Shown in pieces: positions 1-10,387 of a DNA stretch of 64,000 bases. The stretch lies in NCBI GenBank assembly GCA_964106915.2, contig OZ066914.1; one strand, 5' to 3'. The notes below the pieces were generated by a model that saw nothing but the letters and a program-made list of their open reading frames with translations, was not told where the DNA came from and did not search any database. The first letter of the stretch is position 1. The number at the start of each line of letters is the position of its first letter. This DNA is from Podarcis gaigeae. Lineage: Eukaryota. A program made the translations under genes and the position numbers.

Positions 1-109
1 AGAAGGGCGCTGCCCAGAGAAAGAAGGGGGCAGCCAACTCTGCCCGTTTTCCAGCCCAGGGAGGGAGAGGGCGCGGGAGTCAGTTGAAGTGGGCAAGGCA
101 GCAGTTCAG

Positions 110-198
110 TGGAAGAGTTCCTGCCTGAAACCCTGCAGAGCTTTCGGTCAGTAGGCAATATTGAACCAATGGTGCTGACTCAGCATAAGGCAGCTTCC
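110..198 (+). mobile_element. 3' part of a tRNA-derived squamate SINE (Squam3-like)
   Basis: cctgcctgaaaccctgcagag...ccaatggtgctgactcagcataaggcagcttcc matches the reverse complement of the 3' half of the SINE copies at 18817-19113 and 43264-43670. Confidence 0.6.
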
Positions 199-1695
199 GG
201 TGTTCAGGTGTTGCTTCTTCTCATCCCCAGCCTGCCAGCCTCTTTGGCTCTGCGATGGTCTGCCTGCTGGCTCTCTTTGGGCAACAAAGTTAGGGAGAAT
301 TGGATGCAGTTCTCACCACTGTGCCTTCCATGCAGAGGCAGCGCTAGTGAGCAAGAGGATGTATCAGCTTCCCTTTATGCACCTCCTTTCCCCCTTTGGG
401 CACTGTGCTGGTGGTAGTTGAATGTACCATCTTGAGAAGGGGTGGATGACCACCAAGGGAACAGAGGCATCTTTCAACCTCTGTCTCTCTGCCTGCCCAG
501 GCAATGCCATGGTACCCAGTTCTCCACATGTGGAGCCCAGAGGGCGAGAGGAAGAGCAAGCTGATGGAAGTCACAGCGCTTCTGTAGAGCAACTTTGCCG
601 GCTTCACTTCTCCCCACTATGCCAACCAATGAGGCAGAGGAAGGTGGAAAGAGAGGTGTCTGCTTCTGATGCTGAACTTGCCCGTGAGAAAGCAGAGACA
701 TGTCCGACTGCTGTTGCTCTGCAGAAGAAGCTAAGTTCCTCTGTGGAGCTTGAGACATTACTTAGACTAACCCATTGGAATAAATGGGCACGACTAACTT
801 CAATCTATTGATTTCATTGGGTCTACTCTGAGAATGAATGAGTTGGGTGCAATCCAGAATCTGCATAGATTTTCTAGAAAAGTTTCATGAACAGCATATT
901 TGCCAACTCATATCTAAGCTCAGCATCCTTGTGGATTTTCAATTAGAATCTAACCTTTTCTACATCTGTTTCTCAGAGGAATCATTATATATATATATAT
1001 ATCTGTATAGGGCAAGTGAATTGGACCAGTATCTTATCATGTGCTTTCACAGATACCTTCTTTATTTTAAGTCTGTTATGTAGAATGAAAAATGTTCCTA
1101 GACCAGGGCAGTCCACAAGTTGCCCTCCTTCAATTAGACTCTGGAGGTATCCTAAACAAAAAAATAGCTGTCACCTAAGGTAAATTATTTGTGTTCTCTC
1201 TAATCAAGAATGTATTTTTGGTCTCTAAAGCATTTTTTCAAGAACACTTAAATACCTTTCCAGTGTTGGCACAGACAAGGAGAAAATCAGAGGGAATCAT
1301 ATACACAAATTGTTTCTGCAAGGAAATGTATTACCTCAGTAGAAGACAAGTGAATTAATATGGGACTAGATTAAGCAGGAGTTAGTTTTGCCTTAAGAAG
1401 TATGTGCAAGTACATTAATAAAACAAGAAGGGAAGACAGCCCTGAACAGAATCTTTAAAGAAAAATGGGATCTGTAAGTTTGCATTGTGATGTGCAGCCA
1501 CCTGTCAGCACATCAGAGACAAGGAATGATGGGCAAAGAATATGAGTGAGTCTGATGTAACTGTGCAGAACATTCATTTGGACAGGACCTTCTTTAAATA
1601 GATCAATGTTACGTCTTGCCAATTTAATTACTTGTGTCTAGTCTGGTGGCTGCATTGCCTAAAACCAATTGTACATATTTATTCCTCCTAAGTCC

Positions 1696-1778
1696 AGTGG
1701 AGGACAGAGGTGCCTGGCGTTCTCTGGTCCATGGGGTCACGAAGAGTCGGACACGACTAAACGACTAAACAACAACAA
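1696..1778 (+). mobile_element. BovB (RTE) LINE 3'-terminal fragment
   Basis: gcctggcgttctctggtccatggggtcacgaagagtcggacacgactaaacgactaaacaacaacaa is the characteristic BovB 3' end with (CAA)n tail; flanked by aagtcc direct repeats (1690-1695, 1779-1784). Confidence 0.85.
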
Positions 1779-1901
1779 AAGTCCTAGTTTACTTGCTTTA
1801 CCATGTAACCATTAATGCATTAATTAAGTACTAGTAATAAAAGCATCAATGAGTTTTTCCTCATTTAGAATGTTTATGGACCGTAGGAATCCTTATATAA
1901 C

Positions 1902-1905
<4 letters not shown>

Positions 1906-1949
<44 letters not shown>
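1906..1949. repeat. (TA)n microsatellite, left flank of the Penelope-like insertion
   Basis: About 22 TA units abutting the element; matching (TA)n at 5268-5290. Confidence 0.95.
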
Positions 1950-1952
<3 letters not shown>

Positions 1953-1998
1953 GGTTTTGGTGTCCTCGGGTGTCTTCCCGTGTAAAAGTTGGGGTGTC

Positions 1999-2041
1999 TA
2001 GGCGACGTTTCGACGAGGTCTCACTCGTCATCTTCAGGCTG
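1999..2041 (-). ncRNA. Minimal type I hammerhead ribozyme motif (left arm)
   Basis: Reverse complement reads CUGAAGA-U-GACGAG-ugagac-CUCGUC-GAAA-C-GUC: conserved core, 6-bp stem II, palindromic ACGU stem III; stem I is weak. Confidence 0.75.
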
Positions 2042-4303
2042 GTGCTTTCGGCTTCTTGTTACTGGAACAGAGCGGGATCTCAATGTTTGAGTTCCTATAA
2101 ATACTGTAGAGGGGGTGTGGTGTCTAGCCTCCAATGTTCTGGGCAGAGAGGAAGTTCCCAGGCTAGTGTGCCTTTTCTTCTTTTGTTCCTTAATTACTTG
2201 AGAGATACCTTGAGTGATTTCTTGAGTGATATCCTGAGTACCACTTAGGTGGGTCATTAGGTGTGGATTAGTTGCTAAAGTCTTTGTGTCTTGACCTCTT
2301 GAACTTTGTGAAGAGTTTTCCTGAGAAGATGGCTGTATTGCACTTAGTTGTGCTTTGGCTTGGCTTCGTGTATAGGGGCGAGCTGTGGTTTTGTGGCTTG
2401 TGTCAGCCAGATCTGTGTAGGGATTGCAGGGGGGTGCAGCATCCGGAGGTGCCACCATGGATTGGCTACTGGATGGTGTCAGTAATTCATCTGTGGAGAG
2501 GGTCTGGGTTTGGGTCTGGTGTGGTTGATTGGTGTTGGCGTTCTGTGTGCCTCTGGATCTGGTGTCAGTTTTTGTGGGGAGGGCTAATTTCCAGGTGTCT
2601 GGCAAGCGGGATGTGTCGTCACGCTTGTTCATGTTGTGAGGGTGTTTCTCTATCTCGATGGCTTCCATGATTATTCTCTTGTGGTGATGTTCCGTGTTAA
2701 AGAGCAATTTGGAATCTGCAAAATTAATTTCGTGTCCTGTTTCTTTCATGTGTTGGAAAAGAGAGGAAGTTTTTTCTTCTTTTTTGACGGCATTCTTGTG
2801 TTCTGCGATACGTGCATTTATTCGTCTGTTTGTTTGTCCAATGTACGTGGCTGGGCAGACTTTGCAGGGTATTTCATAGATCCCTTGGTTTTCCAACTGG
2901 ATTTTATCCTTGGGGTTTCTGAGGATATTGGCTATTTTTTGGTTGGTGCAAAAGGCTGTTTTGATATTGTGTTTATGGAGGATTTTGCTAATTTTATCTG
3001 TAGTGCCCTTGATATAAGGAAGGAGGGCCATGCCATTGTTTTCTTCTGTGTCTTGGTTTTTGGGGGGTGTTTCCTTTTGGATTAGCTTCGTAATCCTGTT
3101 TTGCTGGTATCCATTGGCAATTAACACATTTGAGAGATTCTGTAACTCAGTTGTCAAGTGGTCTTTGTCAGCCAGGCGTTTGGTTCTGGAGATGAGAGTC
3201 TTGGCTACGGAGTTTATTTGTGCAGGGTGGTGGTGTGATTGTGCATGTAAGTAGCGGTTGGTGTGTGTTTTTTTCTGGTAGATAGTGTGTCCTAGGGAGC
3301 CATCAGGTTTTTTGTAGATTAGGACGTCAAGGAAGGGAAGTTGGTTGTTGGCTTCTATTTCCATAGTGAATTGTATTTTGGGGTGTAAGTTGTTGAGATG
3401 TGTGAGGAAGCTATCCAGTTTTTCCTTCCCGTGTGGCCAAATTACAAAGGTGTCGTCAACATATCTGAGCCAAAGTTTGGGTTTGTGTTCTGACTTGTCT
3501 AAAGCATTGGTTTCAAAGTGTTCCATGTACAGGTTTGCGATGACCGGTGAGAGGGGTGATCCCATAGGTGCTCCTTCTATCTGTTTGTATCTTTGTCCAT
3601 TGTGGATGAAGTACGTGTTGGTTAGGCAGTGGTTGGTCAGGTCCAAGATGTATTCGGGGGGATTGTATTTGTTTTGAATAGCTGTCAAGGCTTCATTAAT
3701 GGGCACTTGTGTGAAGAGAGATACAACATCGAAGCTCACAAGTAGGTCATTAGGATGTAGGTTTTGCTTCTTTATTGTTTCTATGAACTGGAAGGAGTTT
3801 GGTACGTGTGAAGAGATGGATTCTGCATAGGGCTGAAGTTGCTTGGCGAGAAATTTAGCGAGATTTTGTAGAGGTGAGCCTATGGAGCTGACTATTGGTC
3901 TGAGTGGTGTTCCTTCTTTGTGTATCTTGGGGAGGCCGTAGAGTTTGGGGCATCTGGATGATTTTTCTCTGGGGATGATTCTTAGCTGGATTTCTTCACT
4001 GATAGGAGAGGCTTTTATTTTGGATTTGGTGGTTTTTTCCAGATAGGTGGTGGGATCTGTTTTTATAGGTTTGTAGGCAGGATCTTGGAGTAGCTTTGAT
4101 AGTTTTGCTTGGTAGTCCGATGTGTTCATCACCACTGTGGCATTACCTTTGTCTGCTGGGAGAATGATTATGTTGTTGTCTTTCCTCAGGTTGGTGAGTG
4201 CTTTCTGTTCTTCTTTGTGTAAATTGCTTCTGGGTGGTTTGCTGGAGCAGAGGATGTTGGTGACTTCAAGTCTGATTTTATTGGCTTCATCTGGGTTGAA
4301 TTT
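2021..4303 (-). CDS. Penelope-like reverse transcriptase + GIY-YIG endonuclease ORF (N-terminally truncated, about 760 aa without stops)
   Basis: RT motifs YGLPKIHK, PLRPIVS, SFDVVSLFT, GAPMGSPLSP, RYVDDTF, LPFLDV; endonuclease GIYEIPCKVC..YIGQT..RIAEH. No Cys-rich RT-EN linker, consistent with Penelope/Poseidon rather than Neptune. The first ~24 aa of the listed 784-aa ORF come from the inverted arm. Confidence 0.93.
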   Translation of the reverse strand, partial: KFNPDEANKIRLEVTNILCSSKPPRSNLHKEEQKALTNLRKDNNIIILPADKGNATVVMNTSDYQAKLSKLLQDPAYKPIKTDPTTYLEKTTKSKIKASPISEEIQLRIIPREKSSRCPKLYGLPKIHKEGTPLRPIVSSIGSPLQNLAKFLAKQLQPYAESISSHVPNSFQFIETIKKQNLHPNDLLVSFDVVSLFTQVPINEALTAIQNKYNPPEYILDLTNHCLTNTYFIHNGQRYKQIEGAPMGSPLSPVIANLYMEHFETNALDKSEHKPKLWLRYVDDTFVIWPHGKEKLDSFLTHLNNLHPKIQFTMEIEANNQLPFLDVLIYKKPDGSLGHTIYQKKTHTNRYLHAQSHHHPAQINSVAKTLISRTKRLADKDHLTTELQNLSNVLIANGYQQNRITKLIQKETPPKNQDTEENNGMALLPYIKGTTDKISKILHKHNIKTAFCTNQKIANILRNPKDKIQLENQGIYEIPCKVCPATYIGQTNRRINARIAEHKNAVKKEEKTSSLFQHMKETGHEINFADSKLLFNTEHHHKRIIMEAIEIEKHPHNMNKRDDTSRLPDTWKLALPTKTDTRSRGTQNANTNQPHQTQTQTLSTDELLTPSSSQSMVAPPDAAPPCNPYTDLADTSHKTTARPYTRSQAKAQLSAIQPSSQENSSQSSRGQDTKTLATNPHLMTHLSGTQDITQEITQGISQVIKEQKKKRHTSLGTSSLPRTLEARHHTPSTVFIGTQTLRSRSVPVTRSRKHQPEDDE

Positions 4304-5267
4304 GGATCTATGAAATACCCTGCAAAGTCTGCCCAGCCACGTACATTGGACAAACAAACAGACGAATAAATGCACGTATCGCAGAACACAAGAATGCCGT
4401 CAAAAAAGAAGAAAAAACTTCCTCTCTTTTCCAACACATGAAAGAAACAGGACACGAAATTAATTTTGCAGATTCCAAATTGCTCTTTAACACGGAACAT
4501 CACCACAAGAGAATAATCATGGAAGCCATCGAGATAGAGAAACACCCTCACAACATGAACAAGCGTGACGACACATCCCGCTTGCCAGACATCTGGAAAT
4601 TAGCCCTCCCCACAAAAACTGACACCAGATCCAGAGGCACACAGAACGCCAACACCAATCAACCACACCAGACCCAAACCCAGACCCTCTCCACAGATGA
4701 ATTACTGACACCATCCAGTAGCCAATCCATGGTGGCACCTCCGGATGCTGCACCCCCCTGCAATCCCTACACAGATCTGGCTGACACAAGCCACAAAACC
4801 ACAGCTCGCCCCTATACACGAAGCCAAGCCAAAGCACAACTAAGTGCAATACAGCCATCTTCTCAGGAAAACTCTTCACAAAGTTCAAGAGGTCAAGACA
4901 CAAAGACTTTAGCAACTAATCCACACCTAATGACCCACCTAAGTGGTACTCAGGATATCACTCAAGAAATCACTCAAGGTATCTCTCAAGTAATTAAGGA
5001 ACAAAAGAAGAAAAGGCACACTAGCCTGGGAACTTCCTCTCTGCCCAGAACATTGGAGGCTAGACACCACACCCCCTCTACAGTATTTATAGGAACTCAA
5101 ACATTGAGATCCCACTCTGTTCCAGTAACAAGAAGCCGAAAGCACCAGCCTGAAGATGACGAGTGAGACCTCGTCGAAACGTCGCCTAGACACCCCAACT
5201 TTTACACGGGAAGACACCCGAGGACACCAAAACCTGCATTCCTGTACCCGTGAAAATCTACGAAAGC
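4304..5267 (+). repeat. Inverted arm of the Penelope-like element (GIY-YIG region to 3' end plus tail)
   Basis: Starts at the GIY codons (gg atc tat gaa ata ccc); ORF 4438-5166 matches the C-terminus of the minus-strand ORF except T/I (2595/4592) and R/H (2073/5114). Confidence 0.95.
5146..5188 (+). ncRNA. Minimal type I hammerhead ribozyme motif (right arm)
   Basis: CTGAAGA 5150-5156, stem II GACGAG 5158-5163 / CTCGTC 5170-5175, GAAA 5176-5179, GTC 5181-5183 (predicted cleavage after 5183). Confidence 0.75.
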
Positions 5268-5728
5268 ATATATATATATATATATATATAAATTTTAGAT
5301 TGTCCAAAAGAATACATATTACTGATGTTGCACTGGTGCAGAAAATAAAGCTTCACACTTAAAATTTAATACCCTTCCCAGATTGCACCATAATCCACCT
5401 AGGGCAGCATTTTCCCCCAACTTTGGACAGCTGGATGCTTCTGGGAAAATTATTTATCTAGAGGAATGTTTAATCCACTATTCAAATAATTTCCATTACT
5501 GCTTATAATGCAATGACATCAAAGTAGGCACTAGGCAAGTCTCTGTATATGTTTTCCGCAGTACAGCTCTGCTAAGAAGATCACTTTCTTAGTAGCCAGT
5601 CAATGTATTTCAAATCCCTGAGGATGGCCTCTGTTGAAGTCCTTAGCTGTATATGAGATACATGTAGACAGAGGGGCTGCTTCAGGTAACCTGGCCACAA
5701 GCTGTGAAGAGCTTTAAAGGTCAAACTA

Positions 5729-5729
<1 letters not shown>

Positions 5730-5783
<54 letters not shown>

Positions 5784-5908
5784 TTATTTATACCCCACCC
5801 GTCTGGCTGGGTTTCCCCAGCTACTCTGAGTGGTTCCCAACAGAATAATAATAATAATAATAAATAAAGTGATAAAAAATCCAACATTAAAAACTTCCCT
5901 GAATAGGG
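5730..5908 (-). mobile_element. L2-type LINE 3' end with long (ATT)n tail
   Basis: (AAT)n 5730-5783 followed by tttataccccacccgtctggctgggtttccccagc...aaaacttccctgaataggg; related copy at 52432-52560. Confidence 0.65.
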
Positions 5909-6061
5909 AACTGAGCTTAGAAATTAACAAGGAGCAAGTGCAGTCAACAAAACACCAGTGTAATATGATCATAACTCCTGGTCCCAGTTATCTATTTAAC
6001 CAATATGGTTTGAATTAAATTGTTTCTAAATCATCTTCAAAAGTATGCACACTTAAAACCT

Positions 6062-6150
6062 GGGCTTTTTTTCAGTGGGAAGTCACCAGAACTAAGCTCC
6101 AGAATCTCTCAGGTGGGCGCCATTGCCATTCTAAGAGAATAAATCTGAAT
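6062..6150 (+). mobile_element. Partial non-autonomous DNA-transposon repeat (lizard family)
   Basis: gggctttttttcag...ctctcaggtgggcgccattgccattctaagagaa recalled as a recurrent lizard repeat; a possible other-end fragment lies at about 30811-30842. Confidence 0.4.
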
Positions 6151-6275
6151 ACTCATGAGAAGTATTATATTATTTTCAGAAGTCATACTTTTCATACATT
6201 ATTATTTGTAGGATTTATTTCTAAGCTAAAGAGCTTTAGAAAGTGGCTGTAGAGAATGTGTAATGTGAGTGCCAA

Positions 6276-6310
<35 letters not shown>

Positions 6311-8719
6311 TATATATAAGCTAATTATTGGATTAAGGAGAGGCTGCTCTCCACCAGTGGAAAAACCAGTAAGAGTTAATTCACTATGGCAAAATAGATC
6401 CTGGCCCAGTGCTGTCACAAAGAGTGTCCCCACTTCTTGCTGTGTATAAGGGGGAAAGTAAACGATATGCACCCCTTATCACCCTGTCTTTGGCAACATA
6501 TGCATGCGTCCACATGTGCCTGGAAAACAGTAAAGTCAAAGCCAGCAACATATAACTATCTACCACAGCTTAGCAAATCCTGGGAGCACGCTATTGGTTT
6601 TGTACACTGGAAAGTGCCTCTGACCAAAGAAACTGTGTACCCGAGTACTGGCTCAGTGATCAACCCTAATTGCCACTGTTGTAGCTCCATAATTAGTGGC
6701 AACTCTTATAGCTTCAAATGGCAATCTTGTCAAGTCTGAAAACAGAAGATTAACTTGATGTTTGCAAGAATAGAGAAATGGCAACATCTACAGTTCTCCT
6801 ACAATTGATGATGTTAGATTATGTGCATAATACCTGTGCTTCCAGGGGAAACAGACCCTAGCCATGGTGCACTGATTTAAGGTAAGATAGCTGTAAATAG
6901 ACACAGCTGGAAAGAGACAGCAATGATAGTGCATATATATATATAGGTGTGAGGCAAGTAAAGGAATTTATGAGGGACCTTGACTATGGGTAGTTAAGAG
7001 GGGCTGCCCCTTTCTTGTGATCTGAATCATATGATTAATAAGTCTTAAGAATAACTGTATCTGTGGCTGTCTTACTAATTCTGTTTAGTGGGTAGCTATT
7101 GTTATAAACAGCTAGGCCTCTGTGTTGGAATACCTAGACATTCCAAAGGATATTTCATCTTTTGTTTATTTTTTTTAAAGTTATTAATTGTACATATTCA
7201 TTATGGATGTTTTCAATGTTTTGATGGAATTATTTCATTGCATACGTATCTTAATTATGTGTTGATAATGCTTTTAGAATTTATTTCACATTTGTAAACC
7301 ACTTAGGAGTCATTTCAGCAAGTAAACAGTATATAAATTAATATAACAAGAACAACAGTATTTGTTTGACCTAAGATGCTGTAATTGTTATGAAACATGC
7401 AAAAGAAGACCATAACAAATTTTTGTTAAAATACAGTATTGTTTCACTTTATTCTTGACTATAGCCAGGAGCAAGGCTTCAAAGCATGCCCAGGATCCTT
7501 CCTACATCCAGTGATGTCAGAAATGGCATCCTTAGATCCTTTCTCCTATATTGGTATGTCCCCCTGTTCATGTGCCTCCTTCACTGCTATTATGTCAGGC
7601 ATTAAAAGAGCTATACCTATAGCCCAACACAATCCATTCTTTCAGGGCACATTATTTTCACAGCACTCCACTGAACAAATATCATAGGTCCAACATGAAC
7701 CTTATATTTGAAATATTGATCTGCCATTTTTAGTAGCAATTTCCAATGGTTTTGGAAACCACTCACCTTTCACCCTGAAGCTACAAAACACTCCTTAGGG
7801 CGTCGGAATCTGTATGTTTGGAACATGGGGCGAGGAATCTAATTCACTTTGGGCCAACCTATGTGCATACAGGCTTTGACTGCATGATTGATTTCTGACT
7901 TTTACCTGAGCTATTAATAGCAATGTGAAATTCAAGTTCCCTGATGTATTTTATACATGTAGACCCTAATCAAATGTGCAGGGTTGGAGATGTTGAAGTC
8001 TGCTCAAGTGCACTGAAAGCACAGGTTGGGAAGGCATGCTCATGGTCTCCATATATATGGGTTGGATGCGACACAAGTATTTATCAACTTGACCTAATGT
8101 AGAATAATTTCCCCTCTTTCATTTCCCAGCAAACTTCCAAATTCAAGAAGACAGGGATCCTATTTGAAACAAATTTAAATGTAGTTCCTCGTTTTATTTT
8201 ATTTTTATTTGTTTAAGATACCAGGGAATTCTTGAGAGCTACATCTGTCTTGCAAATACCACAAATTGCAGGACTGCAATAAGAATGTCCATCTCCAACA
8301 GGAAACTTAGTTACTCCACAGGCTTCATGTAACTAAGCTGAGTACACTATACATGTACTGTTTTCTTTCTTAAACAGAGAAAACCCTAAGACTGAATTTC
8401 ATTTTCATATTCAACTGGTATTTCCCTACATTGTTGTTTTCATTGCAAAGGAAAATAGTAATAATATGTTATATATACGGTACATCATGAGATACCTATA
8501 CCCTTTCATGTAACTCCATTTCTCTTAAGAGCATTGCAGGGTTTTTTTTGTTTTTTAAAAAAATAAAAATAAAAAGTTGCACAAGGAGGTGAGAAATAAT
8601 GGAAGAGGACAATATGTCGTTTCAGCTTCCCCATAGCAGAAGGGATCACTATTTTATGGGCCATTTAATCAAGGTTGAAGCAGAATATGAAGAGATTCAA
8701 GTACTAAACCAAGTATGAC

Positions 8720-8827
8720 CATGTTGCTGGGCTACAGCTCCAAACATGCCTGACCATTGACCACGCTGGTGATGATGGGAGTTGGGAGTCCAACAACAGG
8801 TAGAGCATCACAGGTTCCCCACCCCTG
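8720..8827. mobile_element. Degenerate hAT-type palindromic MITE relic
   Basis: gggctacagctcc...gatgatgggagttgggagtccaacaac...caggttccccacccctg resembles the intact copies at 39184-39319 and 50111-50246; other relics near 15740-15865, 21255-21340, 25635-25790, 34950-35085. Confidence 0.6.
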
Positions 8828-10387
8828 TACTAACCATGCCCATTTCTTCCTTGGATGGTGCCAACTGCTTCTTCCCTCGAAATGGATTCCAGCCCTGTTG
8901 TCATTCTGGGATATAGGAACCCGTATGGGGATTCCAATGCATAGTAAAGTATGTCCCTCTTTACGCCTCTGACGTGTGGAAACAATGTTTCTGAACTGAA
9001 AATAAAGTGACAGGATATGCAAGATACTTAAAGTATTTCTTATATTTTGTTCCACACTTCAGCCAAAAAAGGCTCCTAGAGTGGCTTAAGATAGTTCCTA
9101 CCCTCAAGCTTACTATCTACTATATAGAATACTATATAGAGGTACTTTGGGAAGCTATTAATTCTGGAACGGGATAAAACTTCATAGTGTAATTTATTTT
9201 CCTGTGTTTCAATGCACTGTAGGACAGGAGTACTGACCAGACAGTACTTTAGTGTCATTTCAATAGCGTAACTGAAATGGTTAAATTTATTAATGTGCAA
9301 TACTCTTCTAGAGGGAGAACAGTTTTATTGCATGTATACATTTAACCTGTTTCCCTTTTTCTTTTAAATAGCTCACTGATATATTACATGATGTAATACA
9401 GCGTGGGAGTATTAATGTACTTATTTGAGATAGATTGTTACAGAACTTATGCATTCTTTTGTCTTTTTTTTGTATTTTCAACAGGTAAAAAATAAATTGA
9501 CCAAATTGACCCACTAAGCCTAAATAGGCTTTGTGTTTAGGATTCACACTGTGCAGACATCATCACACCAAATGGAGTGAATGTTTACTTGGTTAAAAAT
9601 GATGCTATCTGAGGAAAGGCTGGCTTCATCCCCGTCAATGTGCTGCCCATCTGACAGTCCAAGACTCTGTGATTCTGCTGATTCTTAGGATGGAGAAATT
9701 TGAAGACAGGTGGCACCACCAGCTGTTTCATCACATGGTGGGTAACATCACCATAACCCTGGAACATAGATGCATTTCTCCATAAACTGGAGTCCACAAA
9801 ACACTATTAATCAATTTCTGAGTTGTAAGAGGGAGGGAAGTTTTGGTTCGGGGAAGATGTTATGGAGTCTTGGATTGTCGGGAAGACATGAGGAGAATTG
9901 CTCATGTTGTTGTAGAAGAGAGAGAACAAATCCTTAACCGACGGGCAGGTAAAGGGGTGCAAGAGTAAATGGTTGATCACCTGACACAGCAGCACAGCTA
10001 GAGAGCTAGAAAGAAGATAAAAGTGTTTAAAACTGAGATACAGTAATTTCCCTAGGAACCACAGCAAATGAGGAACAACTATAACAAACTATTTTCTCCG
10101 ATCATTTGGGAGGCAGTGCATTTTATTTTGTATTTCTTTTGAAACCTGCACTGGTGTTTTTCAAGTAGGTGATTACAGCTACAGTTTTGGTATATCACCA
10201 TTGACTTCAAGAATGCTGCATTTAAATCGAGAGTTTACAAAAATTCCATATTTGAGAAAGAGAAGTAAGAATGTTGAGAAGCTGTGCATGTACTCACTGG
10301 ACGTTTTGTTCCCTGAAAGTCTGAGCATGCATCCAGGGCAGAATATAGCCATTTCATCATTTGCATAAACATACACTTTTCATACAA

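Follow-up and report, generated by a model that had tools for sequence, protein, structure and literature searches.

Where units meet in a young Penelope-like element (PLE) of Podarcis gaigeae, a hammerhead motif overlaps both the likely start codon of one unit and the stop codon of the unit upstream. The overlap runs through the family, and genomic arms of the element begin in excess at two nearby positions, 42 nt upstream of the AUG (-42) and directly after the predicted cleavage site (+29). On balance, we favor the view that the hammerhead cuts a minority of the element's RNAs and that the stop codon lies in loop II through tight packing and is not a switch. One 150-nt stretch appears to combine a protein tail, a promoter, a leader, a ribozyme, a start, a stop and a reverse-transcription signal. 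The arrangement is a variant on the known PLE hammerhead: the start-codon overlap is already published for PAc of Anolis carolinensis (Frangieh et al., 2024; PMC11167929), and in the open literature the stop-codon overlap and genomic ends at the cut are apparently unreported. A search of the PLE literature found neither; subscription papers, Repbase notes and supplements could hold them.

The window, i.e., the whole 64,000-nt stretch analyzed, contains an insertion of the element with the following features (signed positions count from the A of the AUG):

1906..1947 (left flank) and about 5268-5290 (right flank), no strand: (TA)n target microsatellite, from sequence.
1948..4305, minus strand: main arm of a Poseidon-type PLE insertion that is truncated at its 5' end; it runs from unit nt +692 through the unit's end and on into +1 to +84 of the next unit (blastn against the natural unit in locus L032, 99.7% identity).
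1999..2041, minus strand: mirror copy of the hammerhead, identical to 5146-5188, where the RT-bearing frame truly ends.
2021..4303, minus strand: remaining ORF with the RT, a GIY-YIG-like endonuclease and a 185-aa tail; stop codon at 2021-2023.
4304..5268, plus strand: inverted arm, unit nt 2114 to +113 of the next unit.
5084..5091, plus strand: TATA-like box in the coding tail, encoding VFI, 30 nt upstream of 5114; putative promoter element.
5114..5114, plus strand: likely transcription start, -42 from the AUG; 207 genomic arms begin there.
5146..5188, plus strand: hammerhead motif, minimal type I, with a 2-bp stem I, a 6-bp stem II and no loop III (sequence, folding, descriptor search).
5156..5158, plus strand: AUG spelled by A9, G10.1 and the U inserted between them; probable start of translation in the next unit, being the first Met of a 1000-codon open frame in tandem copies, in the PAc register.
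5164..5166, plus strand: stop codon (UGA) within loop II that closes the frame of the upstream unit; 5 nt separate it from the AUG before it.
5183..5184, plus strand: predicted cleavage site, after +28, by hammerhead numbering.
5184..5268, plus strand: start of the next unit, in which insertions have their two 3' end points, at +84 (5239) and +113 to +118 (5268-5273).

The two arms meet head to head, overlapping by 2 nt. An earlier sequence-only reading of this DNA had noted the identical mirror copy at 1999-2041, and the copy is indeed there, within 936-nt arms that differ at 2 positions. The same reading assigned 5146-5188 to the last codons of the ORF; the frame does end in PEDDE*, but the plus-strand copy sits in the 5'-truncated inverted arm, which holds only the last ~288 codons. 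In the protein, the RT is recognized as RVT_1 (E 4.6e-16), and the GIY-YIG-like domain scores just under the Pfam cut-off (20.6 bits against 22.6; E 3e-4 to 6e-4). Positions 1700-1780 of the window carry what we take to be a likeness to the 3' end of a Bov-B/Sauria SINE.

The element has the hallmarks of an EN+ PLE: a single 991-aa ORF with an RT and with GIY-YIG at its C-terminal end, and tandem or partial-tandem units forming pLTRs, an inverted 5'-truncated arm and an optional tail, all of which are seen. Placement in the Poseidon clade is likely and relies on anatomy shared with PAc. The two-arm structure, the tail on one arm and the microsatellite target match head-to-head PLE insertions described in the parts of PMC8557442 and PMC3846280 consulted, which also report a TATA/Inr and a pLTR including the first ORF codons for A. 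vaga, a further likeness. Unlike in those elements, the promoter region here doubles as coding sequence of the upstream unit. A non-LTR retrozyme, built of short non-coding tandem units, does not fit: the unit is 2,965 nt long and fully coding.

The 34-nt motif, with at most 2 mismatches, occurs in 7,091 copies in the genome (control 0), and between two loci the full units show 0-1 differences over 2,965 positions; by this sequence measure the family is very young. The nearest named protein, from Podarcis muralis, is 94% identical. Because the family is so young and abundant, its insertion junctions form a large natural record of RNA ends, pointing to the likely transcription start and giving a hint that cleavage takes place in cells. 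The viral contigs searched yielded no relative, and a pattern search of the genome for other AUG-type hammerhead families gave one match, a variant of the same Podarcis family. Pieces of the element also occur in four squamate gene models (P0122, P0124, P0136 and P0139; ACOT12, TRAX, P2Y1 and an olfactory receptor), probably as annotation artefacts, and a -42 to +113 mini-copy lies at L031:3817-9120 inside an apparent LINE (ORF1-like frame split, 1,131-aa frame downstream) adjoined by LTR-element-like frames, all labels given by eye.

Base by base, the motif has the anatomy first proposed for it: a core CUGAAGA (5150-5156) followed by an extra U (5157), stem II made of GACGAG (5158-5163) and CUCGUC (5170-5175) around a 6-nt loop II (5164-5169), then GAAA (5176-5179) and CGUC (5180-5183), with a palindromic ACGU at 5179-5182; the predicted cut lies 17 nt downstream of the stop codon. 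Searched with a hammerhead descriptor, the window yields 2 matches; 100 shuffles average 0.03. Folding and covariance tools, to which the sequence-only reading had referred the fold, bear it out in part. Stem II pairs with a probability of at least 0.98, whereas stem I, which had been put at about 2 bp and is exactly that long, pairs with a probability of 0.003; z-scores of the motif region are unremarkable (-0.89 to +0.14), and an Rfam search of 1-9000 gave no match at E≤10 to the canonical type I hammerhead models with their full stems and loop contacts. A search for a longer stem I found, as the best upstream/downstream duplex, a weak and broken one. Folding assigns about -3 kcal/mol extra to an intermolecular helix through the ACGU palindrome; cleavage by hammerhead dimers has been described (Luense et al., via the review PMC6765202, seen in part).

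The identification as a PLE minimal type I hammerhead with a palindromic stem III, likewise made in the earlier reading, is supported by the features that define minimal hammerheads: the CUGANGA...GAAA...NUH core, G10.1-C11.1, a nucleotide that separates positions 9 and 10.1, and a palindromic 15.2-16.2. These, together with the long stem II, are also common to the PLE ribozymes in the consulted sections of PMC4209133. Helix I is 2 bp long in place of the usual 4-5 bp, as it is in the Penelope element of D. virilis, described there as an atypical variant. The same sections record low activity of minimal hammerheads in vitro and, while the Podarcis motif overlaps both a start and a stop codon, mention no such overlap. 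The function of PLE hammerheads is called unclear in the part of PMC8557442 consulted.

The AUG at 5156-5158, absent from the sequence-only reading, is likely the start codon, to judge from the tandem copies at L032 and L033, where it is the first AUG of a 991-codon frame. This frame measures 2,976 nt and the unit 2,965 nt; it exceeds the unit by 11 nt and so ends at the UGA 5 nt past the AUG of the next unit, leaving the element without an untranslated spacer. The 11 bases hold both the AUG of the next unit and the stop of the upstream frame, which lies 8 nt past the A of the AUG. The ORF ends CCT GAA GAT GAC GAG TGA, with the stop in loop II, as had been read from the window; nor does the family's frame stop well upstream of the motif, which the earlier reading had named as grounds for abandoning the idea. 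The loop-II stop 5 nt after the next AUG is found in 12 of 12 complete units (10 loci), and the frame is open up to it in 54 of 54 arm readings, some loci being counted twice.

The frame reaches loop II through a long tail. All 185 codons past the endonuclease are open in frame, as in 9 of 20,000 shuffles, and the other two frames contain 10 stops each. In the agamid-like protein P0135, which over 97 aa shares 86% identity with a protein named from Phrynocephalus forsythii, the tail is 40% identical, with 66 gap columns of 252 and large in-frame indels, and ends in the same seven residues, HQPEDDE; P0135 is known from protein alone, and a loop-II stop is presumed there. Purifying selection on the tail amino acids was looked for and not found: the tail has 2 synonymous and 14 non-synonymous differences, against 10 and 11 in the core (37 of the 40 listed differences, of about 310). 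An open tail frame of this length is unlikely by chance; the tail amino acids are not conserved. The identical ending in lacertid-type and agamid-like families would fit selection on the position of the stop as well as inheritance.

Other relatives end elsewhere. In PAc, an active Poseidon element with a single RT + GIY-YIG ORF, the stop lies 126 nt upstream of the AUG, as read by eye from the junction in the Methods of PMC11167929. Of 17 metagenome loci with an endonuclease-end stop and a downstream sense hammerhead, drawn from 79 and including some of the same family and perhaps some dead copies, 15 stop 20-457 nt upstream, one in the core UGA, one two nt past the cut and none in loop II. 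Among 121 proteins, a C-terminus compatible with the protein's own N-terminus in a shifted frame is found in two, the Podarcis element and P0005, which runs 24 codons past its own AUG and overlaps over 25 codons (null maximum 5 in 1,500 pairs). Judged by sequence, unit overrun does occur in other families, with a different stopping place. Given an active PAc whose stop lies that far upstream, and the varied stopping places of distant PLEs, the element class does not need a loop-II stop. The C-termini of P0005 and P0013 (the latter by eye only) read through the whole hammerhead, and at L076:1661-1700 the frame of a distant PLE stops at the hammerhead-core UGA directly before an AUG. A start-codon role of the motif AUG in all PLEs was rejected: the AUG is present in 9 of 22 sense motifs of distant loci and opens only 3-14 codons. 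Several closer proteins, examined by eye, begin with peptides in the expected register.

PAc is the closest experimental reference, and the comparison draws on the consulted sections of PMC11167929. The two elements share the AUG at A9-U-G10.1, a cut 25-26 nt past the AUG, 3' end points near +84 and +111-118 and AT-rich targets. They differ in the spacer, since a non-coding pLTR of 126 nt separates the stop from the AUG in PAc, where the Podarcis element has no spacer and overruns by 11 nt; in stem I, 3 bp in PAc (by eye) versus 2 bp here; and in their ends, as the PAc study found no RNA ends at the cut, whereas some Podarcis genomic arms begin there. The PAc ribozyme cleaves with the protein and not without it, with a C3-G8 rescue, and PAc reverse transcription starts at 111-118, the region that the protein binds and primes in.

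The 5' ends of the Podarcis arms are suggestive of cleavage. The 207 arms at -42 compare with about 20 per position (an estimate from 706 matches), and all 30 fetched are true ends; transcription likely starts here, presumably directed by the TATA-like box. At +29, 58 arms have a non-reference base directly before this position, about 2.5 times the local mean of ~23 per position, itself estimated from the 743 matches spread across 43 positions, with 75% capture; 28 of 30 fetched arms are true 5' ends, with 19 junction types. As a unique peak, +29 is rejected: 64 matches fall at +44 (of 30 fetched, 26 prove to be true ends, 4 of them partners of +29 arms), and the two positions tie at 10 each in an unbiased sample of 100, in which +30 has none and +28 has one. 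Another 38 matches fall at +26.

The +29 junctions resemble those at -42, which suggests cleavage in vivo. Arms whose inverted partner extends beyond them on the upstream side make up 1 of 24 at -42 and 4 of 22 at +29, but 12 of 24 at +44, 17 of 22 at +26 and 20 of 30 at neighboring positions (Fisher p 0.0007, or 0.003 by locus). Microhomology of at least 3 nt is present at 1 of 27 junctions at -42, 1 of 24 at +29, 8 of 24 at +44 and 7 of 22 at +26; +29 differs from +44 and +26 taken together (15 of 46) with p 0.007, a comparison in which +44 and +26 were selected as peaks and repeated identical junctions may share a parent, hence may not be independent. A further caveat is that a self-complementary GC opens both the -42 and the +29 ends. 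Several loci are perfect palindromic mini-insertions, in which arms are joined end to end at -42 or +29 with a 2-nt GC overlap (L174/L175, L180/L181, L186/L187, L190/L191; L134/L135, L139/L140). L136 and L152, two +29-starting arms, have the same 40-nt non-element sequence upstream, so they may descend from one parent or from a repeat target.

Fewer than 1 in 100 motif-bearing arms are affected, and a reverse transcriptase stopping at a structure would leave the same footprint at +29. In raw RNA reads from four runs of a related organism, which are of low depth and from both strands, no pile of ends was seen at the cut, a result that carries no information because the libraries were fragmented. 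At the other end, 168 of 402 arms finish at +84, 105 at +113 and 76 at +118. Among 20 long copies found with an internal probe (L032-L051), 10 contain a complete unit. Every one of these runs across +29 and -42 seamlessly, their 5' ends ranging from -81 to -1651 and none falling at -42. Since all 10 extend upstream of -42, long cDNAs come from templates that exceed a single unit, be they circles, multi-unit transcripts or read-through transcripts. Two loci contain two identical full units.

Under the favored reading, a promoter in the coding tail would start the RNA at -42, and translation would begin inside the 5' motif and end inside the 3' motif. With a disordered 185-aa tail whose frame is kept open, the frame would have to cross the promoter and the 5' leader, and loop II is the first unpaired, and so the first cheap, place to end, which is most likely why the stop lies there. 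The element's protein would prime at +84/+113, as PAc does. Cutting would need assistance, whether by a second copy pairing via the ACGU palindrome, by the element's protein, as for PAc, or by both. Cleavage after +28 would strip the downstream frame of its cap and AUG, the upstream frame would keep 17 nt past its stop, and the cut RNA end would sometimes be reverse-transcribed.

The loop-II stop could alternatively be functional. In a reworked form of the coupling proposed in the sequence-only reading, ribosomes terminating in loop II would keep the 3' hammerhead unfolded, so that translated RNA retains +84/+113; we regard this as unlikely. It would account for a loop-II stop in all complete units and probably in the diverged relative, and for the seamless passage of all 10 full-unit copies across the cut site; a cut at the 3' motif would, moreover, detach the region where insertions end and where the PAc protein binds and primes. 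Yet PAc is active with a non-coding 126-nt pLTR, none of the 17 distant loci stops in loop II, and the PAc ribozyme stays uncleaved without protein, so no shield is needed. Because natural relatives differ in where they stop, the coupling idea is directly testable. A ribosome that terminates on a tandem transcript might instead reinitiate 5 nt before the stop, at the AUG, and translate successive units, as the AUG-N5-UGA geometry and the tandem full units in L032 and L033 would allow. Viral reinitiation signals lie 40-80 nt upstream of the stop; the sole nearby UGGGA here is ~130 nt upstream, each unit has its own likely promoter, and the literature search gave no support, all of which makes this reading very improbable.

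The long copies raise a different prospect, which seems doubtful to us: two successive hammerhead cuts would free the 2,965-nt unit, ligation would restore the AUG, one lap plus 11 nt would be translated, and a rolling template would rebuild tandems with the promoter upstream. The extension of 10 of 10 full-unit copies past -42 and the two loci with two identical full units fit this cycle; circles were proposed in PMC4209133, and PMC2377424 sees no obvious way of regenerating the pLTR (both seen in part). However, multi-unit or host read-through transcripts would give equally seamless copies, mutating the PAc ribozyme leaves insertion in vitro normal and RNA-seq revealed no ends at the cut in the consulted sections of PMC11167929, and no circle was seen, a circle junction being identical to a tandem junction in short reads. 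Ribosome shielding and the circle could possibly coexist, and in the boldest combination, which we hold to be quite improbable, a fully coding RNA circle would arise by hammerhead cutting in vivo and ligation of the 2,965-nt unit, be translated for one lap plus 11 nt from AUG to UGA within the ribozyme and undergo rolling reverse transcription, with ribosomes at the start and stop gating the folding. Conversely, the ribozyme might be inactive in vivo and kept as start-codon context and protein-binding structure, the +29 ends marking an RT stop or a joining hotspot. The stem I pairing probability, a +44 peak that equals or exceeds +29, the survival of 7,091 intact motifs with most cDNAs passing through them and the low in-vitro activity noted in PMC4209133 would all agree with this; nevertheless, the excess sits precisely at the predicted bond, with 1 end at +28 and 0 at +30 in the sample of 100, the junctions have less microhomology than at +44 and +26, a block at stem II would place ends near +21, and the PAc homologue cleaves with protein and shows the C3-G8 rescue. 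We consider inactivity rather unlikely.

The protein termini that overlap the motif are both predicted to be disordered: AlphaFold pLDDT is below 50 at residues 1-30 and over most of 814-991, including 941-991. An xTRS/xLRS motif, defined after the tails had been viewed, occurs in 20 of 29 homologue tails of at least 30 aa (shuffle mean 3.7, maximum 9). It presumably recalls the chromatin-binding arginine motifs of retroelement proteins; the literature search found no report of a chromatin motif in PLE tails, and subscription papers, Repbase notes or supplements could hold one. The Podarcis tail has three copies of xTRS/xLRS, two of them in the last 21 residues, and xTRS, xLRS or RRSTR is found near the C-terminus of many Poseidon-like proteins (P0003-P0121 tails), corresponding to 5101-5137 in the window.
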